Notes under the pieces: generated by a model
Told to the model about the DNA's origin: nothing
The model's input: the letters and a program-made list of their open reading frames with translations, nothing else
Databases searched by the model: none
Position numbers and translations under genes: made by a program
Shown: positions 5,286-16,848 of the stretch, in pieces
Numbering within the stretch: the first letter of the stretch is position 1
Layout of the letters: the number at the start of each line of letters is the position of its first letter
DNA from: Gammaproteobacteria bacterium
Lineage (GTDB): Bacteria > Pseudomonadota > Gammaproteobacteria > SZUA-152
Assembly: GCA_024276955.1 (NCBI GenBank)
Contig: JAJRWE010000033.1
Span: 54 to 64,053 of the forward strand
Length of the DNA: 64,000 nt
Reading direction: 5' to 3'

Positions 5286-8200
5286 TCAGGTCATCGGGGA
5301 AGCATAAACCGGCGACGGCAGCATTGGGTAGGTGCGATACACATGCCTGAACACCTCCTCTGCTCTTTTGTTCACATCGTCCTCCGTGTACGCGTCAACG
5401 GGGAGCCCCGTTTCATCGCCCCACAGATAATCATGTATCGTAACTCGCACCGCATCACGGGTGGCTTCCTTGTCACGCCAGTGGTCAATGCGTAGCTTTT
5501 CTTCTTTCAGCCGCTCCAGTAACTGCGCCGCAACCTTCTTGATTTTCTTAATTTCTGTCGACTGCAAATCGGGCTTCTTCAAAAGATCGAAAATCGCCAA
5601 CGACTCTTCATCCAGCCCTTCACGAACGGCACGGTGTTCCTCTTCATCGAGCGCCTGAACAAGACTGAACAGCGCTTCAAAGGTTTTTTCGATCGTCGCC
5701 CGGTCTTTCTCTCGATTGTACCCAGCAACAATATTCTCGTAGTGCTGCTGAAAATCGGTGCGCAAAGGGTTTTGTTGCAAGAGGCGCTGCAATCGCTGTT
5801 CCACGGCCTGACGCAGGTTCTGCACGGTCGTATTTTTTGCTGAATGATGCCCAAACTCCTTGCGCAACAAATCAAAATCAATCTTGCTGATGTCATACGG
5901 CACAGGCTCCTCGCCCACGCACTCCGGCTGCACCTCGATCGCCTCATCCACCACCTGGTGCAACTGCCGAATAATGCCGCTGATATCCGCCTGCTCACGA
6001 TCCTGTTGCAGGCTCTTGTAAACAATGTTGATCGCATCTCTATCCGACCGATGAGCATTGATGCCCTGAACATTGATACAGGCCTTGAATTTCTTGAATA
6101 CCTCCCGGCACATCACCTCGAAGCGTTTACGACTCTCGTCACTCTCGTTGGCCGCTTCCTTGCAGGCGACGATGGCGGCATTGCGCTCAAAGCCGGTCTT
6201 TTGAATGATGTCATCAAGTGTAGCGGCCTGGCCTTCGAGAAACATTCGCACCAAAGCAATGGCCTCGGCCAGATCCGCCAGCAACTCCTCATCCGGCCGT
6301 GCCGGGTCGATCGCGCCACCCTCGCCCTCTGGCTGGGTACCCGCGAAGGTCGCCAGCGCCTTGCGCAGGTGCTTGAGAATGCCGCAGTAATCTACGATCA
6401 AACCGTTGTTCTTTCCCTCGTTGACGCGATTGGCACGCGCGATGGCCTGCATCAAGGTATGGGCCTTGAGGGGCTTATCCAAGTAGAGCGTGGCAAGGCT
6501 CGGCACATCAAAGCCAGTCAGCCACATGGCGCAGACAATCGCCACGCGCAGCGGATGCTCCTGCGCCTTGAAGGCATCGTCCAGCGCCATGGTCTGCATA
6601 TTTCGATACTCGGGCTTCTCTCGCATCGACTCGGGCAGATCGATACCCTCCTTCATCAGCCGGCGATGCGGGGTGATGTCCAGACCCCACTGGCGGAACT
6701 TGTCTACCTCGCCCTGCTCCTCACTCACCACCACCGCCATGCGGGTCTCGCGCATCCAGTCGAGCTGGCGACGGCGGAACAGCTCTTCCTGTTCATCGTC
6801 GATGGTTGCCAGCCCTTTTTCCAACTCACTGATTCGTTCGTCCCAGTAGAAGCCAATCAGCCGGTGCATGCGCACGCAGGTTACCTTGTCGATGCACACC
6901 AGCATCGCCTTGCCGGTCTCCCACGCGGTGGCGTAGTGCTGCACGAAGTCCCGCGCCACCTGATCGAGCCGCTTGTCGGCGGTGATAATGTGGTAGTCGC
7001 GCTTGAGTTCCCGCTCCAGCCGCTGCTCGACATCGATGTCATCGGCCTCCAACGCTTCCAGCTTTTCAGCAATACGTTCGTTGAGGTCACCGATGGCCAC
7101 GCCCAGCTTCTCGCCACGGGCATCGTAGTACAGCGGCACCGTGGCCTTGTCCTCCACCGCGCGCTGAAAGTCGTAGGTGGAAACATACTCGCCAAAGACC
7201 CGACGGGTGATCTCGTCGTCTTTGAACAGCGGCGTGCCGGTAAAACCGATATAACTGGCATTAGGCAGTGCATTGCGCAGATTGAGCGCCAGTGTGCCGT
7301 ACTGAGTGCGGTGTGCTTCATCGGTAATCACGATGATGTCATCACGCTCACTATAGGGCTGCTCCGGCTCGACCTTTTGATTAAACTTCTGAATCAGCGA
7401 GAAGATGTAAGCCTTGTGCTGGGTCAGCAACGTATTCAGATGACGGCCACTGGCCGCCCGGCACGGTTCCTGCTCACTCACCACGCCGCAATTGGCAAAG
7501 GTCTTGTAGATCTGGGTATCGAGATCGTCACGGTCGGTCAATACCAGAAAGGTAAAGTTGCCACCGAGCTTGCGGTGCACCTTGCGGGTAAACATCACCA
7601 TGGAATAGCTCTTGCCCGAGCCCTGGGTATGCCAGAACACACCCAGCTTTCCCTGCCGTGCCTTGCGCTCGCGCACGGAATCGATGGCGCGATTGACACC
7701 CAAAAACTGGTGGTTGCGGGCGATGATCTTCTTCGGCTCACCGGTGGTCTCATCGAACAGAATGAAGTTCTCCAGAAAGTCGAGAAAATTGCCCTTGTCA
7801 CACACGCCCTTGAGCAGTGTTTCCATGTCCACCGCCCCCGGGGCATCCTCGGCCAGGCGCTTCCACTCGTTGAAATGTTCCCAACGGCTGGTCATGGAGC
7901 CGATCTTGGCTTGCTCACCGTTACCAAACATCACGATGGCGTTGTGGTGGAACAGGTGTGGAACGGTATCGAGATAGTCGGAGAAGTTTTGTTCGAAGGC
8001 GGTCTTGAGATTCTTGTGAATGTTTTTGCATTCGATGAACAGCAGCGGCAAGCCATTGATGAAGCCAACGATATCCGCCCGCCGTCGGTAGAGATCACCG
8101 CGCACCCACAGCTCGCGCACGCAGAGAAAATCGTTGTTCTCTGGCTCATCGAAGTCAAGCACCCGCAGCCGCTGACGTACCCGCTCGCCGGTATCGTTGC

Positions 8201-8516
8201 GAAAGGTTACCTGCACACCATCACGCAACTGGTCGTATTTCTCGCGATTGGTGGCCACTAGCGGCTGCGAGGCGACGATGGCAGTCATCTGCCGCACGGC
8301 ATCGTCATAGGCCGCATCCGGCAGGCCCGGATTCAGTGACACCAGCTTCTCGCGCAGCGTTCGTGTCAGCACCACCTCACGATCAGAAGTACGACCCAAA
8401 AGGCTATCCGGCCCGAAGTCCTCGTTGTTCCAGGCATACACCGACCGCCAACCGAGCTGCTGTTCCAGATAGTTGGCGGTGGTCTGCTGGACGAGGGTGT
8501 CTTCGGTGTAGTTCAT
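5286..8516 (-). CDS. hsdR: Type I restriction enzyme R subunit HsdR
   Basis: 1076 aa; SF2 helicase/HsdR motifs (GSGKSYSMV, VITDEAHRTQYG, FTGTPLFKDDEITRRVFGEYV, QAIARANR); last gene of the hsdM-hsdS...hsdR minus-strand array. Confidence 0.92.
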   Translation of the reverse strand: MNYTEDTLVQQTTANYLEQQLGWRSVYAWNNEDFGPDSLLGRTSDREVVLTRTLREKLVSLNPGLPDAAYDDAVRQMTAIVASQPLVATNREKYDQLRDGVQVTFRNDTGERVRQRLRVLDFDEPENNDFLCVRELWVRGDLYRRRADIVGFINGLPLLFIECKNIHKNLKTAFEQNFSDYLDTVPHLFHHNAIVMFGNGEQAKIGSMTSRWEHFNEWKRLAEDAPGAVDMETLLKGVCDKGNFLDFLENFILFDETTGEPKKIIARNHQFLGVNRAIDSVRERKARQGKLGVFWHTQGSGKSYSMVMFTRKVHRKLGGNFTFLVLTDRDDLDTQIYKTFANCGVVSEQEPCRAASGRHLNTLLTQHKAYIFSLIQKFNQKVEPEQPYSERDDIIVITDEAHRTQYGTLALNLRNALPNASYIGFTGTPLFKDDEITRRVFGEYVSTYDFQRAVEDKATVPLYYDARGEKLGVAIGDLNERIAEKLEALEADDIDVEQRLERELKRDYHIITADKRLDQVARDFVQHYATAWETGKAMLVCIDKVTCVRMHRLIGFYWDERISELEKGLATIDDEQEELFRRRQLDWMRETRMAVVVSEEQGEVDKFRQWGLDITPHRRLMKEGIDLPESMREKPEYRNMQTMALDDAFKAQEHPLRVAIVCAMWLTGFDVPSLATLYLDKPLKAHTLMQAIARANRVNEGKNNGLIVDYCGILKHLRKALATFAGTQPEGEGGAIDPARPDEELLADLAEAIALVRMFLEGQAATLDDIIQKTGFERNAAIVACKEAANESDESRKRFEVMCREVFKKFKACINVQGINAHRSDRDAINIVYKSLQQDREQADISGIIRQLHQVVDEAIEVQPECVGEEPVPYDISKIDFDLLRKEFGHHSAKNTTVQNLRQAVEQRLQRLLQQNPLRTDFQQHYENIVAGYNREKDRATIEKTFEALFSLVQALDEEEHRAVREGLDEESLAIFDLLKKPDLQSTEIKKIKKVAAQLLERLKEEKLRIDHWRDKEATRDAVRVTIHDYLWGDETGLPVDAYTEDDVNKRAEEVFRHVYRTYPMLPSPVYASPMT

Positions 8517-8525
8517 GCCTGGCGA

Positions 8526-8894
8526 TCAGTCCTTGCCATAAGCCAGTGTCAGTGAATCGGCCACCTTTCGCAGGCGCTTGTCCCGTGTCCACAGTTGCGC
8601 CGAACCGGCCAAGGCCACCGCCGCCAACAGGTGAGCATCCACATAACCAATACCTCGCCCCATCAGTGCATGCCGTTCGATGAAAAACCGCACTTCGTCA
8701 TCCGTAGCGACCGTCACATGCGGCAGATCATTGAGCAGCGCCAACACCTCATCCCGGTTGCCAAGGTTGCCGCAGGCCAGCTCCCCCAGCACAAAGGGGT
8801 GCATCAGCACTTGGCTGTGATTCAACAGAGCGGCCAGGTCTTTGTCACCGACGCGCAGGTGATCGATCCAGACCGAGGTATCAACCAGGATCAT
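8526..8894 (-). CDS. vapC: PIN-domain toxin VapC
   Basis: Probable start MILVDTSVWIDHL (internal Met of the 151 aa ORF); PIN acidic residues; overlaps vapB by 14 nt. Confidence 0.85.
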   Translation of the reverse strand: MILVDTSVWIDHLRVGDKDLAALLNHSQVLMHPFVLGELACGNLGNRDEVLALLNDLPHVTVATDDEVRFFIERHALMGRGIGYVDAHLLAAVALAGSAQLWTRDKRLRKVADSLTLAYGKD

Positions 8895-9087
8895 GCTGGC
8901 CAGACTGTCTACGGGAGACCGGCTCCAACTGCGGTTCGCTGCCACCCAAGCGCGCCAGCCGCCGGGCACTTTCGCGCTCAATCAGTGCGCGCAGCCCCTC
9001 CCGCACCAGCGCGGTTTTTTCGGTCACACCGGTAATGCGCTGGGCTTCATCCAGCAATTGGTCATCAATATTCAGGGTCGTGCGCAT
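8881..9087 (-). CDS. vapB: VapB-family antitoxin
   Basis: 68 aa; MRTTLNIDDQLLDEAQRITGVTEKTALVREGLRALIERE typical of the VapB/PSK antitoxin family; directly upstream of vapC. Confidence 0.75.
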   Translation of the reverse strand: MRTTLNIDDQLLDEAQRITGVTEKTALVREGLRALIERESARRLARLGGSEPQLEPVSRRQSGQHDPG

Positions 9088-9265
9088 GGCAACACCTCAT
9101 TCAGTCACGATATACACCAAACAATACATCACATGATGCTGTTTGTCGTGCCTGGAAAGCTGTTGGATTTAGGGCCTGACGGATCAAGGTCTTGCCCAGA
9201 AGATCCATCGCCTGCCTGATAGACTTTGCCATCGGCAGCAGTTGTTGCATTTTCGGCGTAATCCA

Positions 9266-9610
9266 TCAGTCAACGTCATCCGCCTCGTTCAGCATCTCAC
9301 GAATACATTCTTCAAGCGGTGGCAAGTGCCCGTCGATTACCGCGGCTATTGTGAGAGGATCAATAGTACCCAGATAGTTATGCACGAGAATGTTCCGAAA
9401 ACCGCTGATCTCACGCCACGGGATAGCCTGCTAGCGCGCTTTCATCTCCTGCGGCAACAACTGCGTGGCTTCAGACAGTGTTTGCAAATTTCGCAAGGCG
9501 GCGTCATACAGCACCTCATCCTGGGTAAGATCACCGCGCTCCCGGATACGCCGAATCTTCGCAATGGCATCAAGAATATGCAGAGCGTAAGGCTGCCAGG
9601 GCTTTTTCAT
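9266..9610 (-). pseudogene. HepT-family (DUF86) toxin gene interrupted by an in-frame TAG
   Basis: Minus-frame translation MKKPWQPYALHILDAIAKIRRIRERGDLTQDEVLYDAALRNLQTLSEATQLLPQEMKAR*QAIPWREISGFRNILVHNYLGTIDPLTIAAVIDGHLPPLEECIREMLNEADDVD. The HepT Rx4HxY motif (RNILVHNY) lies after the amber codon (plus-strand cta at 9431-9433). The ATG overlaps the MNT stop (ATGA). Confidence 0.65.
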
Positions 9611-9897
9611 AACTCCACGGCTTCCTTTAAAACCTGCTCGCGAATATGGCGGTTGAGTTCATGCTCCGGGATGAGTTCCACCCGGCGCTTGAGCAAATCC
9701 GCCAGCTGTTCGGTCAGGGGCAAACGTTGGGCAAACAGGTCATAGCCCCGCGGCAACTCCACCAGAAAATCCACATCACTGTCAGGCCGCTCTTCGCCTC
9801 TGGCAACCGACCCAAATACCCGTATGTGCCGAGCACCATAGCGGCTGACCAATTCGGTGATGACCTCTCTTTTTGCATGCAATTCATCGATTAGCAT
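9607..9897 (-). CDS. Nucleotidyltransferase-family antitoxin (MNT)
   Basis: 96 aa; RVFGSVARGEERPDSDVDFLVE minimal nucleotidyltransferase motif; paired with the downstream HepT-like gene. Confidence 0.8.
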   Translation of the reverse strand: MLIDELHAKREVITELVSRYGARHIRVFGSVARGEERPDSDVDFLVELPRGYDLFAQRLPLTEQLADLLKRRVELIPEHELNRHIREQVLKEAVEL

Positions 9898-10065
9898 AGC
9901 AACCCCTGGCTCGTGTAACTCGTTTCAAAAATATTAGTATGCCCACATTCCGAAATAATGGCATCCAGATTGTCATGTTTGCGTTGCCGCCGAACTTGTC
10001 GTGCAGGTTTGCTGGACGAGGCTGTCTTCGGTGTCGGCCGTTAATGTCATGACTCGATGCCTTCC

Positions 10066-10365
10066 CTATCTGTTTCTATCGAACATTCTATTGGCAATCC
10101 AGCAAGATTTACCGAGCCCAACACAGTTATAACTCACTGATAATAAAAATTTATCTTCCCAAGAAGGGAGTCTATCAAGCAAAACAATCATGATTTCGGG
10201 CTGATTTGACAATATTGTGTTCAATAGCCCTTCGAGCCAACCTAGCATCGTCGCAGCATCTGATAACCTAGCTCCAAAATTATCCTGCACAGGATCCAGA
10301 CTACACTGGCTTCTGACCAAAAATTCTAAACTCCTTACACCTCCGGATAAACATGTCGAGGGCAA
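10066..10365 (-). CDS. Hypothetical small protein (low-GC, overlaps 3' end of the TOPRIM-like gene)
   Basis: 99 aa ORF in an AT-rich stretch; no recognisable motif; possibly a third component of the inserted module, or non-coding. Confidence 0.2.
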   Translation of the reverse strand: MPSTCLSGGVRSLEFLVRSQCSLDPVQDNFGARLSDAATMLGWLEGLLNTILSNQPEIMIVLLDRLPSWEDKFLLSVSYNCVGLGKSCWIANRMFDRNR

Positions 10366-10982
10366 CCAATATTTTCACAAAGCAATCCAACAGCTCGTTC
10401 AAGCGACCCAAAACACGGAACTTCAGCCCCTCTTAGCACAGGCAAATCTATTTTTCTGGTCATAATGAGTTGATCCATTGTGGGCTTATAACTCCTCCCA
10501 TCTGGAAAATTTTTGCTAAGCCATTCCTTTACGCCTCGACGGGCCTCCCATGATTCACCATCCCAACCAGTGCCAAGCATCAGCCCCGAACGCCCATCTG
10601 GAAAATTACCTGTCATCCGCTCAAGACACGGAAGAAAAAGAACCTCGTATTCAGGATGCAGGAGAACATATGCAACGGGGAACGGAAGATCCATGCCACG
10701 CAGAGAGCCAGCAATGCTCGGTGCAAGTTCCTTGGGACAGCCGTCATCTTCATCACGCAGAATGAGCAGGCCGCCTACATCCGATTTCCCTCTGATAAAA
10801 TCTGCGCCTCTTCGCACACCACCTCGACTTGATTCCCACTGGTGGAGATTTTGCCAACGTAACGGCGTAGACCAAGGATGAAAGCATTCCAAATCACGGG
10901 ACATCCTCGTCAATAGATTTTGAACCGCCTGCACCTCACCATGACCTTCTACAAGAACGTACAACTTCGACATATTTTTCAA
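10335..10982 (-). CDS. TOPRIM-like small protein (DUF4276-like), partner of the upstream ABC-type ATPase
   Basis: 215 aa; LYVLVEGHGEVQAV (TOPRIM Glu motif) and LLILRDEDDGCP (DxD motif); start overlaps the ATPase stop by 4 nt (ATGA); lower GC than flanking hsd genes. Confidence 0.6.
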   Translation of the reverse strand: MKNMSKLYVLVEGHGEVQAVQNLLTRMSRDLECFHPWSTPLRWQNLHQWESSRGGVRRGADFIRGKSDVGGLLILRDEDDGCPKELAPSIAGSLRGMDLPFPVAYVLLHPEYEVLFLPCLERMTGNFPDGRSGLMLGTGWDGESWEARRGVKEWLSKNFPDGRSYKPTMDQLIMTRKIDLPVLRGAEVPCFGSLERAVGLLCENIGCPRHVYPEV

Positions 10983-12160
10983 TCCAGAGGAAGTGAAAGT
11001 TGAAGGTCACCAGAAATCATGATTTCTCCTAGTGTCAAAAGTTGATTTCGTACTGCATCGATATGCCCAGTAGACAACGGACATACAGAGGTAACGGCAC
11101 CACTGCGCTGAATGACAAAAACATTACTATCATCAAGATCAATATAATCGAGAAGAATTGGGCTATGAGTGGTTACGAATATCTGGGATCGAGCACTTGC
11201 CTCATTTAAATAGTCGTAAATAAGTGGAAGCGCCCCAGGATGCACTGTCAACTCAGGCTCCTCTATCCCAATAACCGTTAGCGCAGGCTTTTGTAACAAA
11301 GCTATCAGCAGACCTGCAACACGCAATGTTCCATCTGACTCAAGGTCAGCACCAAACCATTTTTTTGCTTTCTCTCCACGTGCCTTGTGATGGAATTGCG
11401 TAATCAGGAACCCTGATGCCTTTGCTACCTTAATATCGTCAATATCACCTGTAAGCTTTTCCAGTGCTGATACCAAATCTGGTTTCCAACCACTCTTTTC
11501 CTGCTGGTGGAGACTGGAGACCCAATTTTCACCACGAGGCTGCATTGGTGTCTCATTGCTATATTTCTGGGGTTCACGAAGCACATCAGGATAAATAGAA
11601 TAGACCATCATATTCGCCAGAAACTCCCATAACGGCTTGATCCGCGCATCTCCACCGAGAGACGTAACAGCTAAACTCTGACTGTCAATATTTGGACGCA
11701 AGTTCTCTGGTCCTTTCCATTCACCAGCATCAACAGAAAATGCTGTGGTTTCGCCTGAAATATTCAGGCTGCCCCACTCTTTCTTAACCCGGTATTCCTC
11801 ACCACGGTCACCAGTAATCTCAAATCCGTAGCAAACTTCACCATTCTCGAGCGAAGCCTCAATCTCAATTCTGACATTCCTGGGATGACCGCTACTATGC
11901 CTCCGTACTGATTCAATACCATTATTATTTGTGATAGCTCCTGGAAGGCCCATGCGAACAGCCTCTCGAACAAAGGTCAAGGCCCGAAGTACATTACTTT
12001 TCCCACTGCCATTGGCGCCAACGAGAAAATTAAGACGTCCCGGCCTGATGTCGACACTGGCGCCAATACTTCTGAAATTCGATAGGGTTAGCTTAGTTAT
12101 CATGGGATACTCCAAATATTCAAAGTGCTTTGCCTGGATTGCAAATACATATTGTGACAC
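10979..12160 (-). CDS. ABC-type (AAA_21/AAA_15-like, OLD/AriA-like) ATPase
   Basis: 393 aa (likely start MITKLTLSNFRSIG); Walker A LVGANGSGKSN, signature-like ESDGTLRVAGLL, Walker B/D-loop TVIGIEEPELTVHP, H-loop VTTHSP; no transmembrane domain. Confidence 0.8.
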   Translation of the reverse strand: MSQYVFAIQAKHFEYLEYPMITKLTLSNFRSIGASVDIRPGRLNFLVGANGSGKSNVLRALTFVREAVRMGLPGAITNNNGIESVRRHSSGHPRNVRIEIEASLENGEVCYGFEITGDRGEEYRVKKEWGSLNISGETTAFSVDAGEWKGPENLRPNIDSQSLAVTSLGGDARIKPLWEFLANMMVYSIYPDVLREPQKYSNETPMQPRGENWVSSLHQQEKSGWKPDLVSALEKLTGDIDDIKVAKASGFLITQFHHKARGEKAKKWFGADLESDGTLRVAGLLIALLQKPALTVIGIEEPELTVHPGALPLIYDYLNEASARSQIFVTTHSPILLDYIDLDDSNVFVIQRSGAVTSVCPLSTGHIDAVRNQLLTLGEIMISGDLQLSLPLD

Positions 12161-12167
12161 TTATTTG

Positions 12168-13373
12168 TCATGACATGGGGATGCGGCCATTCATCAGGCG
12201 TGGCAGGAGAAGATCACGGACTTTCATCAACTTGACATTCATACTTTGCAAGGCCTCAATCTGGTCAAAGAGCGGACATACTGACTCTGAGAATAGATAT
12301 AATAATCCCTTTGTCGGCAATACCATTTCAAAAGCCTTTATTACTTGTTGGCTGATATTGTTTTGTGCAGCCCCTTGCCCCAAGCCAACAAGGTCCGCTT
12401 TGTGGTGATTGAAGAAAAGATAAGCATGCGCATATGTCACCCCAGGCACTAAGGGAGTTACAGCGCAACAAGCCTGATTTGAGGCCGACGGAACAGAAAG
12501 GATTGCCGTTTGCCCTATCGTCGCTCCATACATGGCAACCAATACAGTATGCCGAGGAAACAGTTTTGCCGACGAAGACTTGATAGCTTCTTCAGTAATT
12601 CTTTCTTCAGTGGACAAAATAAAGCCGCCAGTCAACTCTCGGGTCTTCACCCATGGAACGTCACCCGAATAGAAATCTGGTTTTTTCCTGCTTGGCGTTC
12701 CACCGGATGCGGTTGAATAAAAATCGGAAACTACACCTTCCTCCCACCCCTCCGGTACGCCGTTTTTGATTTTGACGTGTTCGTGGCCGGGGAAGCGGAG
12801 GTGGACGAACCATTCCTTGTAGAGCAGCCGTGCGGCCTGTTCCAGCAACTGTATCCGCCGCTGGTTGTTTTCGATCAGATTGTCGTAGGTGGATAGGACA
12901 TCTGCAATCTGCCGCTGCTCTGTGACAGGCGGAATCGGAAACTTCAGGGACAGAAGCTTTCCCTGACTTAAATTATCTTGGGCAGCACCCTGGGTGAATT
13001 GCTTAAACTGCTTTTTAAGCATCGCATCGAACAAGTACTTAACGAATCTTGCATCAGCCTTTCCCTCATCTGGGATAAAACCAATGACACTGTCGGGAAA
13101 GCAGGCGTCAATTCCAAGGATTGCTGTGTCGGCAATGTTCGCGGCAATGGTGATACATAATGTCCCCGGCGGCCACATACGGCTTTGTGCAAGCCCAGCC
13201 TCACTATATGTCTGCGAGTGTTCATTTAGGTACAGACCAGCGTGTTTAACGTCTCCGGTCTGAACAAAAGGGTGCGCCCCTCCATACAAGTGAGCGGCAT
13301 CACGGGGACGATGACGTGACCGCCCTCGACTGACAAAGCCCAGTTCATCAAGGCTTTGAGGCTGCCATGTCAT
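12168..13373 (-). CDS. hsdS: Type I restriction-modification specificity subunit HsdS
   Basis: 401 aa; two target-recognition domains separated by conserved central helical repeats (TEQRQIADVLSTYDNLIENNQRRIQLLEQAARLLYKEWFVHLRFPGHE); start overlaps the hsdM stop (ATGA). Confidence 0.88.
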   Translation of the reverse strand: MTWQPQSLDELGFVSRGRSRHRPRDAAHLYGGAHPFVQTGDVKHAGLYLNEHSQTYSEAGLAQSRMWPPGTLCITIAANIADTAILGIDACFPDSVIGFIPDEGKADARFVKYLFDAMLKKQFKQFTQGAAQDNLSQGKLLSLKFPIPPVTEQRQIADVLSTYDNLIENNQRRIQLLEQAARLLYKEWFVHLRFPGHEHVKIKNGVPEGWEEGVVSDFYSTASGGTPSRKKPDFYSGDVPWVKTRELTGGFILSTEERITEEAIKSSSAKLFPRHTVLVAMYGATIGQTAILSVPSASNQACCAVTPLVPGVTYAHAYLFFNHHKADLVGLGQGAAQNNISQQVIKAFEMVLPTKGLLYLFSESVCPLFDQIEALQSMNVKLMKVRDLLLPRLMNGRIPMS

Positions 13374-15277
13374 ACCCCCAACTCCTCAAAATTCCTTTTG
13401 ATCGTCGCAGCCAACGTGACGGCCTCGACATTGAGGTCTTCCAGCTCGACGTGGATTTCGCGCAGGGTTTCTTCGAAGTCGAAGTCTTCGTCGACTTCCT
13501 CGGGGGCGACGCCGACGTAGCGGCCGGGGGTGAGGCTCCAGTCGTTGGCTTCGATCTCTTTGATGTCCACGAGCTTGACCAGCCCTTCCACATCGCGCAG
13601 CTTGGCCTCGGGGAAATGTTCGGTGAGCCAGTGGGCCTGTTTCCAGAAGTAGCGCACCTGCTTGAGTTGCTCGACGGCGCGTTGGCGGGCTTCGTCGGCG
13701 GCCTTGCGGGCGCGGGTGATGTCGCGGGTGTTGAACCCCGGATTCCGCTTCGCTTCATCCAGGCTACGCCCCTTCCGAGCGATTTCATCGATCAGACGGG
13801 TGGCGAGTTTGTAGATGAGGTCGGTCTGTTTGATGAGGTCGCGGCTGGCCTCGCTCATGGGTTCAAACTGGGCGATGAGTTTGCACAATGCGGCGTTGCT
13901 GTCCGGTGCGGCCTGCCATTGCCGGGCGGCCTTGTCTGCACGTTTGCGAAACTGTTCGATGTCCTGCGCGAAGACTGCGAAGGCCTTGTCCAGCTCACCG
14001 GTGGCATCCGTTACTCTCACCTCCGCCCCCTCACTCGGTGAGAACGCGGCATCCTTTGGCAGGCTGTCCAGAATTGGCGCGAGGATTTTGCGCAGGGCCT
14101 TGAGTGCCTCGGCGTAGTCTGGCAGTGGCCGGGCGCTCTGTCCGGTTTCGTCTTCCCATGCCAGGCAGGCCTGTGCCTCGTCGGCGACATTGCCGAGGTA
14201 TTGCGAAACCAGCTGCAAGTAGCGTTCGCCTTCGCCCCGATGGAGCCAGACGATGGCCAGCAGGTTTTGCTGTTGTTCGGGGGAGAAGTCGTAGATCTTG
14301 CGCGTGACCTTGCGGTAGACGTTGCGTGCGTCGATCATCAGGACGTTGCCCCTGTGATTCGGAGCAACACCACCCTCACCCCTGCCCTCGGCTTTGGCCT
14401 CCTGCACCGCCCTAGCTCCTCCACCCCTGGAGTCGTCTCCCTGAGGGAGAGGGGGTCTATTGCGATCGAGGAACCACAGCTCGCAGGGCACAGTGCGGGT
14501 GTAGAAGAAGTTGGAGCGGATGGCGATCATGGCGTCGACGTCGCCAGTCTCGACCAGTTTCTGCCGCAGTTTCGCCTCACCGCCACCGGCGCTGGAGGCC
14601 TGCGATGACATGACGAATCCGGCGCGGCCCTGTTCACTCAGGTAGCTGTAGAAGTAGCTGATCCAGACGTAGTTGCCGTTGCTGACCTTGCCCTTTTTGT
14701 TGACGCCGGGCAGGCCGAAGGGCAGGCGCGGGTCGGACTTGATCTTGTCGGCGTCGATCTCGTCCACGTTGAAGGGCGGGTTGGCCATCACGTAGTCGGC
14801 CTTGCCGAGCAGTTCGTGCGGGTCTTCGTAATAGGTGATGGCCTTTTGGATATCGCCTTCCAGACCGTGCACGGCGAGGTTCATCTTGGCCAGGCGGATG
14901 GTGGTGGCGTTCTTTTCCAGGCCGCGGAAGGTGAGCTTTTCCGTGGGGCTGTCGCCGTGTTCCTCGACGATGCGCGCACTCTGCACGAACATGCCGCCGG
15001 AGCCGCAGGCCGGGTCCAGCACGGTGCCGCGTTCGGGGTCGAGCACGTGGGCGATCAGCGAGACCAGCGACACGGGTGTGAAGAACTCGCCGCCGTCGTG
15101 GGCGCCCTGATCCGCGAATTGGGTGAGGAAGTATTCGTTGCTGGCGTAGTTGGAATTGGCACGCAGGTTATCGGCGGCACTCCAGAGGCGTTTTTCGATA
15201 GCTTCGATGTGTTCGAGCTGTGACACTTTTATGGCGATCCTTTTTCGTTTGCTGGCTTTGAAATTCGCTGATATCAA
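13370..15277 (-). CDS. hsdM: Type I restriction-modification N6-adenine DNA methyltransferase HsdM
   Basis: 635 aa; HsdM N-domain (IEKRLWSAADNLR), AdoMet motif I (VLDPACGSGGMF), motif IV (MANPPFN); carries a ~30 aa Gly/Arg-rich low-complexity insertion after the LWFLDRNRP block. Confidence 0.9.
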   Translation of the reverse strand: MISANFKASKRKRIAIKVSQLEHIEAIEKRLWSAADNLRANSNYASNEYFLTQFADQGAHDGGEFFTPVSLVSLIAHVLDPERGTVLDPACGSGGMFVQSARIVEEHGDSPTEKLTFRGLEKNATTIRLAKMNLAVHGLEGDIQKAITYYEDPHELLGKADYVMANPPFNVDEIDADKIKSDPRLPFGLPGVNKKGKVSNGNYVWISYFYSYLSEQGRAGFVMSSQASSAGGGEAKLRQKLVETGDVDAMIAIRSNFFYTRTVPCELWFLDRNRPPLPQGDDSRGGGARAVQEAKAEGRGEGGVAPNHRGNVLMIDARNVYRKVTRKIYDFSPEQQQNLLAIVWLHRGEGERYLQLVSQYLGNVADEAQACLAWEDETGQSARPLPDYAEALKALRKILAPILDSLPKDAAFSPSEGAEVRVTDATGELDKAFAVFAQDIEQFRKRADKAARQWQAAPDSNAALCKLIAQFEPMSEASRDLIKQTDLIYKLATRLIDEIARKGRSLDEAKRNPGFNTRDITRARKAADEARQRAVEQLKQVRYFWKQAHWLTEHFPEAKLRDVEGLVKLVDIKEIEANDWSLTPGRYVGVAPEEVDEDFDFEETLREIHVELEDLNVEAVTLAATIKRNFEELGV

Positions 15278-15429: not shown

Positions 15430-16173
15430 TCAGATTTTTATAACCCAGCCAGGCCTGAAGTCCGGGTTCAGTGCCTCTGGGGCATAGCCACGCGGGTTGC
15501 AGACCACCCGCGTGCCATAAACCTCGTAATCAAAGGAATCATGCGTATGCCCGTGAACCCACAATGCTGCGCGGTCGCCATCCATGAGATTCTCGAGGTT
15601 GCTGGCGAAGGCCGGGGTCAACAGGTCGCGCGCGAATCTTGGATGCACTGACCGAGATGAAGGGGCATGGTGGGTAACCACCACCGTCTTGCCGGCAAAG
15701 GGTTCTGCCAGCATGATGGCCAGCCAGTCCCGGCTTGCTGTGTGCAGCCTGATGGCGTCCTCGGGCGTGAACCGCTGCCCATGATGTTGAATGATGGAAA
15801 AGTCCGTCATCTGTTGCCGCGCCTGCTGCATGGCAAAAAACCTGTCCGCCTCACCAAACAGGGCGAAGTCCGTCCACAGGATACTGCCCAGGAATCGTAC
15901 GTCGTCAATGATGACCTGATCGTCGTTCAGTACGTGAACGTTATCGGCTGTCTCTGACTTCAACGCATCAATCAGCGCAATATCATGATGGTAGAACTCG
16001 TGGTTCCCAGGCACGTAGATGACGGGCCGGTCCGGGAATCGAGCTTCTGCCCAGCGCAGGCCACCCATACCCACACCAATATCGCCTGCAAGGATGACCA
16101 CATCGGCATCGGTTGCCGGTGGCTCGAAATTATCGAACTCAATGTGCAGGTCATTCAGGATGTGGAGCTTCAC
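15430..16173 (-). CDS. Metallophosphoesterase (calcineurin-like phosphoesterase)
   Basis: 247 aa; metal-binding motifs DLHIE, GDIG, GNHEF, GHTH. Confidence 0.75.
   Translation of the reverse strand: MKLHILNDLHIEFDNFEPPATDADVVILAGDIGVGMGGLRWAEARFPDRPVIYVPGNHEFYHHDIALIDALKSETADNVHVLNDDQVIIDDVRFLGSILWTDFALFGEADRFFAMQQARQQMTDFSIIQHHGQRFTPEDAIRLHTASRDWLAIMLAEPFAGKTVVVTHHAPSSRSVHPRFARDLLTPAFASNLENLMDGDRAALWVHGHTHDSFDYEVYGTRVVCNPRGYAPEALNPDFRPGWVIKI

Positions 16174-16771: not shown

Positions 16772-16848
<77 letters not shown>

Follow-up and report, generated by a model that had tools for sequence, protein, structure and literature searches.

The window analysed here (the whole 64,000 nt stretch, taken from contig JAJRWE010000033.1 of a gammaproteobacterial genome) carries a Type I restriction-modification (R-M) operon in which two further genes, here called A and B, lie between hsdS and hsdR. 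All genes from hsdM to hsdR, including those in the 1.8 kb between B and hsdR, are on the minus strand. The methyltransferase and specificity genes are hsdM (13370–15277; Pfam N6_Mtase, E = 2e-66) and hsdS (12168–13373; Methylase_S, 1.2e-34), the latter directly upstream of gene A. The restriction gene, hsdR (5286–8516), is intact and encodes 1076 aa with HSDR_N (3.8e-38), SWI2_SNF2 (8.6e-73), ResIII and T1RH-like_C domains. Gene A (10979–12103) encodes a soluble, 374 aa ATP-binding cassette (ABC)-type ATPase similar to HEC-01A, and gene B (10335–10973) a 212 aa protein that is similar to HEC-01B and is a divergent DUF4276/TOPRIM-like protein. The mechanically called open reading frames (ORFs) extend further upstream, to 12160 and 10982, respectively.

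A preliminary description of this DNA had placed two same-strand genes between hsdS and hsdR, which is correct, and had joined them by an ATGA overlap, which is not. The junction reads GAT TGA AAAAT ATG, so that the stop codon of gene A (TGA, 10979–10981) is separated by 5 nt from the ATG of gene B at 10973; an overlap (TTGA) arises only if gene B used an alternative TTG start at 10982. The same junction is kept, without change, in the closest relative of the locus (L081). Nor is the pair alone in the interval between hsdS and hsdR: a 1.8 kb insertion carrying toxin–antitoxin (TA) genes was overlooked. The upstream limit also needs revision. The module had been drawn to 12160, where there is a candidate GTG start, but the ATG at 12103 is preceded by GGAG and is most likely the start of gene A, giving a predicted product of 374 aa. 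A public protein collection holds exactly these two products, of 374 aa (A) and 212 aa (B). Together with the full-length profile matches of both proteins (see below), this places the gene pair far beyond chance.

The base composition of the pair differs from that of its surroundings. The G+C content is 0.455 for gene A and 0.493 for gene B, and at third codon positions (GC3) it falls to 0.38 and 0.41, compared to 0.785 for hsdM, 0.72 for hsdR and 0.755 for rpoD, with hsd genes reaching 0.79. The lower G+C content noticed in the preliminary description was therefore confirmed, and the contrast in GC3 with the hsd genes supports its view of the pair as foreign cargo within a Type I R-M locus. 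Scans for promoters and terminators around A–B gave signals at or below the level expected from shuffled sequence, and Rfam models detected two tRNAs across the window and nothing else.

Assignment of genes A and B to HEC-01

HEC-01 (Hma-embedded candidate 01) is a family of PADLOC-DB v2, defined by Payne, Hughes, Fineran and Jackson (bioRxiv 2024) for pairs of an ABC ATPase with a TOPRIM protein that lie within Hma systems. In PADLOC searches, gene A matched the HEC-01A model PDLC04178 at 3.3e-92 (ORF residues 18–387 against profile positions 6–381 of 399), a score far above those of the AriA, AbiLi, Old, GajA and mad3 models. Gene B matched the HEC-01B model PDLC04196 at 7.8e-27 (residues 4–199 against positions 1–189 of 197), and PDLC04200 at 4e-19 over its full length. 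The sequence features of a HEC-01 system are present: a match to the A model, a match to the B model, and adjacency on one strand (with a 5 nt gap). The pair is a further member of this catalogued candidate family (HEC-01/DUF4276) and not a new kind of system. The preliminary description, which proposed a PADLOC search, had been unable to confirm that such a pairing was already catalogued. The window genes share with HEC-01 the arrangement of adjacent, same-strand genes for an ABC ATPase and a small TOPRIM-like protein, and HEC-01 was likewise discovered nested in a multi-gene defence system. They differ in that HEC-01 was defined from Hma hosts, whereas the host in the window is a Type I R-M operon, and in that B of the window falls in a subclade whose scores are under the Pfam cut-off for DUF4276.

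As the preliminary description had anticipated, the gene A product matches Pfam AAA_21 (7.6e-33) and AAA_15 (6.5e-17). The motifs it had listed for both proteins were all found by translation. In gene A these are a Walker A (P-loop) motif, GANGSGKSN (11993–12019), an ABC signature-like motif, ESDGTLR (11321–11341), a Walker B motif, IEEPE (11252–11266), and an H-loop, TTHSP (11159–11173). Across 46 homologs, invariant residues include G29, N31, G34, K35 and S36 of Walker A, S256, D257 and G258 of the signature, E281, P283 and E284 of Walker B, and T312, S314 and P315 of the H-loop, where H313 is retained in at least 90%. An AlphaFold2 model of the protein has a predicted local distance difference test score (pLDDT) of 91.2 and, by Foldseek, resembles SMC heads, Rad50 heads and PtuA (E-values of 1e-12 to 1e-15; template modelling (TM) scores of 0.45–0.58). 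The Pfam and PADLOC matches, the motifs and the Foldseek results together indicate an ABC-type ATPase that is compact and lacks a coiled coil. Its scores with the NCBIfam equivalogs for MAD3, PtuA, the Eco8 effector and RecF were all far under the respective cut-offs. The C-terminal tail (residues ~355–374; 10979–11040) is conserved, with the consensus LGDLMxSGDLQL, but of low pLDDT in the model of the monomer, and may act as a peptide for the docking of B or for oligomerisation.

The gene B product aligns with Pfam DUF4276 (PF14103) over its full length, as had been expected of it, but scores only 22.6–22.7 bits, under the gathering threshold of 30.2. Seven other members of its clade that were tested score 17–29 bits, while two remoter relatives found by a family-profile search pass the threshold (49 and 54 bits), and so the clade is tied to DUF4276 transitively, as a divergent subclade. 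DUF4435, RloB (PF13707) and TOPRIM_OLD (PF20469) gave no match in Pfam, even at an E-value of 10. The family is large, with 631 proteins retrieved by a word-indexed search, and 1652 clusters at 50% identity (E ≤ 0.001). Among the matches listed, full-length members are about 200–240 aa and carry no extra domain.

Residue conservation in B was assessed over 97 sequences (the window protein and 96 divergent representatives; median identity 34%), and was related to an AlphaFold2 model of high confidence (pLDDT 94.4; predicted TM score 0.91). The TOPRIM glutamate block, VEGHGE (10935–10952), lies in the loop after strand 1 (residues 3–8); E9, which follows this strand, is present in 94/97 sequences, and position 13 is E or D in 95/97. 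The DxD block, RDEDD (D74, D76 and D77; 10743–10757), lies at the end of strand 3, with D74-x-D76 terminating the strand at residues 66–74; D74 is found in all 97 sequences and D or E at position 76 in 96. Just after strand 4 is a PEYEV block (10641–10655) containing E108 (87/97) and E110 (96/97), and the helical C-terminal half includes K149 (10527–10529), kept in 92/97. The model thus displays the TOPRIM hallmarks of a glutamate after strand 1 and a DxD after strand 3 in an alpha/beta core. Directly behind the DxD block is a Cys-Pro pair (C79-P80; 10734–10739) that is also well conserved (C79 in 94/97 and P80 in 87/97); we know of no TOPRIM role for such a pair in this position.

In BpOLD, the ligands of metal A are E400, D455 and D457, those of metal B are E404, T506 and E508, and the catalytic lysine is K562 (PMC6755086). 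The order and spacing of E9, E13, D74, D76, E108, E110 and K149 in gene B parallel this two-metal site, including the E-x3-E spacing of E9/E13 (E400/E404 in BpOLD), and 160 residues of the gene B model can be aligned with the TOPRIM-plus-helical region of BpOLD. E108-x-E110 would be the counterpart of the metal B ligands T506-x-E508, and K149 is a candidate counterpart of K562. Payne et al. (bioRxiv 2024) also report that HEC-01B has the OLD metal site in common, and a 2025 study in Nucleic Acids Research assigns DUF4276 to the Toprim superfamily. The prediction that gene B encodes a TOPRIM, metal-dependent nuclease is well supported by these sequence features, although not independently proven. 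It can be put at the level of residues, as an OLD-like two-metal site made up of the seven positions given above.

Pairing, selection and the Type I R-M setting

Homologous loci were compared in 80 genome loci, sampled as one genome per species, and occur in Myxococcota, Acidobacteriota, Planctomycetota, Desulfobacterota, Chloroflexota, Gammaproteobacteria and other phyla. Gene A is directly upstream of gene B in 75 of the 76 informative loci, which bears out the conserved pairing predicted in the preliminary description. The four further loci end at contig boundaries. In L072, B is truncated and A is lacking. The two genes are no more than 12 nt apart, or overlap, in 66 of 73 loci. Pairwise-identity matrices of A and B are strongly correlated (Mantel r 0.84), a value reached by none of 999 permutations. 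Flanking genes are not conserved between A–B loci, indicating that the unit consists of exactly two genes. In one Desulfobulbaceae genome (L008, 8772–13283) there are two A–B pairs in tandem, the second B appearing truncated. On plasmids, the B family was found only as three matches to Streptomyces megaplasmids, at 28–30% identity.

Both genes are under purifying selection and are maintained. In all comparisons of the window with its relatives L081 and L082, the ratio of non-synonymous to synonymous divergence (dN/dS) was 0.06–0.12 for A and B, equal to that of hsdR and hsdM, with a synonymous divergence (dS) of 0.6–1.0.

Neighbouring genes were at first counted by Pfam, but greedy ORF picking mis-called some neighbours in loci of high G+C content (for example, the hsdM of L006 was missed). 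Such counts understate the R-M context, and so a recount was made by targeted phmmer searches. By this measure, a Type I R-M system surrounds or adjoins the pair in about 9 of 73 loci (12%), and no hsd gene lies within 10 kb of it in about 62 of 73. The embedded loci are mostly among the nearest genome-locus relatives of the window B. They show two layouts. The first, hsdM-hsdS-A-B-hsdR, is that of the window and L081. The second, hsdR-hsdS-A-B-hsdM, is seen in L004, L007, L011, L012 and L068, and involves a Type I family distantly related to that of the first; L002 and L015 are partial members of this group, and in L006 an extra ORF separates hsdS from A. The pair comes directly after hsdS in nearly all loci of the second layout. 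Two of these operons contain further genes. L007 carries a nested PDC-S02 gene (a YhcG/DUF1016-type PD-(D/E)xK protein; 5787–6962), and in L011 a protein encoded between B and hsdM (5531–7192) shows weak matches to SIR2/pAgo-associated models.

The closest relative, L081, has a B protein 87% and an A protein 89% identical to those of the window. Its gene order is tRNA, Metallophos, hsdM, hsdS, A, B and hsdR, without the 1.8 kb TA insertion and with the addition of an integrase gene and HipBA. The pair (8871–10648) is again of low GC3 in L081 (0.42 and 0.41, compared to about 0.75 for the hsd genes). In neither locus has the GC3 of the pair (0.38–0.42) drifted to that of the host (0.72–0.79), despite a synonymous divergence between them of about 0.6.

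A different state is seen in L082–84 and L013, where only an HsdM_N stub is left of hsdM, the motor domain is missing from hsdR, and there is an inserted AAA_14/DUF4143 gene. In L082–84 both A and B are intact, with dN/dS of 0.07–0.11, despite the decay of the R-M genes; in L013, from a Methylococcaceae genome, B appears to be split into two ORFs. The dN/dS and dS values, together with R-M decay in these relatives, indicate that the embedding is old and that the pair is kept by selection without needing an intact R-M system. Retention of the pair under purifying selection where the R-M genes have decayed also favours autonomy of A–B.

Related defence systems and a proposed mode of action

A major theme of bacterial immunity is the pairing of an ABC ATPase with a nuclease, as in OLD, Gabija, PARIS and Septu, and HEC-01, with its DUF4276 partner, is among the smallest versions. 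The PARIS paper groups MADS3-4 and AbiL with OLD, Gabija and PARIS as systems of an ABC ATPase with a TOPRIM. In PARIS, as in the window, an ATPase of AAA_15/AAA_21 type and a TOPRIM nuclease are encoded by separate, adjacent genes, and the ATPase is thought to be sensor and scaffold, with the nuclease as effector. The proteins differ in size, however (window B, 212 aa, against an AriB of ~35 kDa; window A, 374 aa, against an AriA of ~55 kDa), and PARIS is often borne by phages or satellites, whereas the window family was not found on phages. Two AriA models match gene A, at 5.4e-31 and 2.4e-18; the former, which is the only strong one, is a generic AAA_21-like profile of 304 positions. Gene B matches neither AriB (PADLOC, E ≤ 0.01) nor DUF4435 (Pfam, E ≤ 10), and membership of PARIS was rejected.

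With OLD the pair has in common an ABC ATPase together with a TOPRIM, and B keeps the E, E, DxD, ExE and K of BpOLD in the same order. The OLD proteins (P2 Old and TsOLD of class 1; BpOLD and GajA of class 2) are single polypeptides, whereas the window genes are separate and have no UvrD-type helicase partner. The PADLOC Old model matches only the ATPase part of gene A (1.6e-17). Membership of the OLD family proper (classes 1–3) was rejected, given the separate genes, the lack of a PF20469 match and of a significant profile match to P2 Old. Gabija was also rejected: where GajA models match A (~1e-15), they do so in ATPase segments alone, and hsdR is the sole helicase gene in the locus, with no counterpart of the UvrD-like helicase GajB. 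The preliminary description had called the pair PARIS/OLD-like, which holds for its ATPase plus TOPRIM logic but not for membership of either family, there being no DUF4435, AriB or TOPRIM_OLD match. Its observation was in essence correct, and the logic of its interpretation is supported. The abortive-infection or nuclease function that it proposed for A–B is one that we, too, infer.

Three other comparisons are relevant. The Mad3-Mad4 pair of MADS is an AAA_15/21 ATPase adjoining a DUF4276 protein in a methylation-based defence locus. The neighbours in the window are instead hsdM, hsdS and hsdR of a classical hsdMSR operon. Assignment to MADS was rejected, with gene A reaching 86 bits for MAD3 (NF047739), where 420 are required, B having no mad4 match, and other mad genes being absent. 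Both PrrC and RloA/RloB are cases of defence genes with an ABC-type ATPase nested among hsd genes. PrrC occurs almost only within Type I R-M systems, and RloB, of the Toprim superfamily, is linked to Type I R-M (2025 Nucleic Acids Research study). They differ from the window pair in that PrrC unites ATPase and anticodon nuclease in a single protein, and in that window B has no match to PF13707, the RloB family. The nearest solved defence ATPases to A are Septu PtuA and the PtuAB of retrons Ec78, Ec83 and Eco7 (Foldseek E-value ~1e-14, TM score 0.45–0.5), which also share the logic of an ATPase scaffold and a nuclease. Their partner is the HNH nuclease PtuB and not a TOPRIM protein, and A scores 29 bits with the NCBIfam PtuA model, whose cut-off is 500.

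A–B is probably a self-contained, horizontally acquired HEC-01 module for ATPase-gated nuclease defence that acts autonomously from the R-M system. The mechanism proposed for it is modelled on OLD, Gabija, PARIS and Septu. The A protein, a compact head of the SMC/Rad50/PtuA kind, would oligomerise and serve as sensor, scaffold and switch, holding or regulating B, which would be the metal-dependent nuclease, small and of the DUF4276/TOPRIM kind. A cue from the phage, or a shift in nucleotide state, would then release or activate B, which would cleave nucleic acid via its two-metal site and so halt phage propagation either directly or by abortive infection. The Type I R-M operon would be only a landing site and carrier, with A–B working independently of it. 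As to the substrate, nicking or cleavage of DNA, as in OLD, is an even guess. Because the site is OLD-like, DNA is the likelier target, and cleavage of tRNA or other RNA, as with AriB, is a more tentative guess.

A number of results weigh against this reading. The physical interaction of A with B, and the trigger, are entirely inferred. The predicted TOPRIM fold did not emerge from general structural comparisons: Foldseek searches of the B model against the PDB returned generic flavodoxin/Rossmann-like matches only (E ≥ 0.01), a profile hidden Markov model of the B family found no match among all PDB sequences at E ≤ 10, and hhalign of the B alignment with the single P2 Old sequence gave a probability of 0.3%, the aligned stretch being LVEGxxE only. 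(The homolog search with the C-terminal region of P2 Old had yielded just 5 near-identical fragments.) B-family relatives were not found in 50,697 phage genomes or in IMG/VR viral contigs. In the survey of neighbourhoods, most family members (about 62 of 73 loci) appeared, by crude ORF picking, to lie beside ordinary metabolic genes and not in defence islands. Experimental results on the family are divided. The HEC-01 representative of Payne et al. gave no defence in E. coli against the phages tried. In a cold-seep metagenome study, one HEC-01 representative protected E. coli B from at least one of T7, T5 and T4, but this assay relied on overexpression with isopropyl β-D-1-thiogalactopyranoside (IPTG) and on spot tests, and the text gives neither a magnitude for HEC-01 nor mutants. 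A defence role for HEC-01 is plausible but thinly tested.

Four other explanations were considered. The pair could guard the Type I R-M system, with phage anti-restriction factors that attack the R-M complex (DNA mimics of the Ocr/ArdA type, or Stp-like peptides) triggering a second-line nuclease. There are precedents in PrrC, in the EcoprrI locus, and in PARIS with Ocr. The position of the pair directly behind hsdS in two distantly related Type I layouts, the clustering of R-M-embedded loci among the nearest relatives of window B, and the domain logic shared with PARIS are all in keeping with such a role. It is nevertheless unlikely, as most loci have no hsd gene nearby, and A–B remains intact under purifying selection in L082–84, where the R-M genes have decayed. 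A narrower form, in which the HEC-01 pairs found after hsdS are dedicated guards of the restriction complex that sense phage anti-restriction proteins disabling HsdMSR and respond with TOPRIM nuclease activity, is quite unlikely; if true, it would represent a PrrC- or PARIS-like layer of anti-anti-restriction with a different and much smaller TOPRIM effector, and the unameliorated, low GC3 of the pair might then hold down expression of this toxic protein. A TA-like addiction or stabilisation module, retaining the island or the R-M locus and having no anti-phage role, would agree with the Pfam label of AAA_21 ('putative AbiEii toxin, Type IV TA system'), the accumulation of MNT/HepT and VapBC right beside the pair, and the way in which the pair outlasts the decay of R-M genes. 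We find this improbable, since there is neither an antitoxin-like partner nor an autoregulatory DNA-binding domain, both proteins retain full enzymatic motifs, and the family is nearly absent from plasmids, where the three matches are distant.

A housekeeping function in DNA repair would have equal domain logic, as with RecF (an ABC ATPase) and RecR (a TOPRIM protein) or ATPase-nuclease pairs of the SbcCD type. It would suit the best matches of the A model, which are to Rad50/SMC heads, and the metabolic neighbours of the pair at most Myxococcota and Acidobacteriota loci. Against this, neighbours differ between loci, GC3 marks the pair as foreign, embedding in R-M operons has been repeated, and B retains a complete, nuclease-type acidic site; the recF profile matches only the Walker A region of A (31 bits, cut-off 172). 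A repair role is, accordingly, very improbable. That A–B is an inert, decaying passenger in the window genome is barely conceivable: the adjoining HepT gene is broken and the codon usage of the pair is atypical, but neither ORF is interrupted, every invariant residue is present, and the dN/dS values of both genes are as low as those of hsdR and hsdM. An autonomous HEC-01 defence module remains the preferred reading, and the window provides a clean, undamaged example of a HEC-01 pair within a Type I R-M operon that is itself intact.

The TA insertion and the probable edge of an island

In the window, 1.8 kb (8517–10334) separates B from hsdR, and the syntenic L081 lacks this DNA. It can be followed from the B side. 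An ORF of low G+C content (10066–10365) has no Pfam match, and next to it is a relic of the 5′ end of hsdR, 25 codons long (9973–10050), which reads MTLTADTEDSLVQQT compared to MNYTEDTLVQQT at the start of hsdR. Beyond this lies an intact gene for an MNT-type nucleotidyltransferase antitoxin (9607–9897), and the gene for its HepT (HEPN) toxin, which is in two frames (9431–9610 and 9266–9385). Only the first 59 codons of the latter match HepT-like (1.1e-05), and the gene (9266–9610) is probably a pseudogene. Closest to hsdR are vapB (8881–9087) and vapC (8526–8981). A 29 nt direct repeat (8481–8509 and 10006–10034), together with the relic hsdR start, indicates that the TA block entered at the 5′ end of hsdR. 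The locus shows how R-M operons gather nested defence and TA cargo.

On its other side, the hsd operon is flanked by a Metallophos gene (15430–16173) and then by tRNA-Met (16772–16848, minus strand), which adjoins rpoD and probably marks the edge of an island. Direct repeats of the tRNA-Met 3′ end, resembling att sites, were not found at the far side of the island. In L081 (1–5400) the same tRNA-like sequence is present, followed by the integrase and HipBA genes, both of which are missing from the window. The window locus looks like a degraded, tRNA-integrated island.

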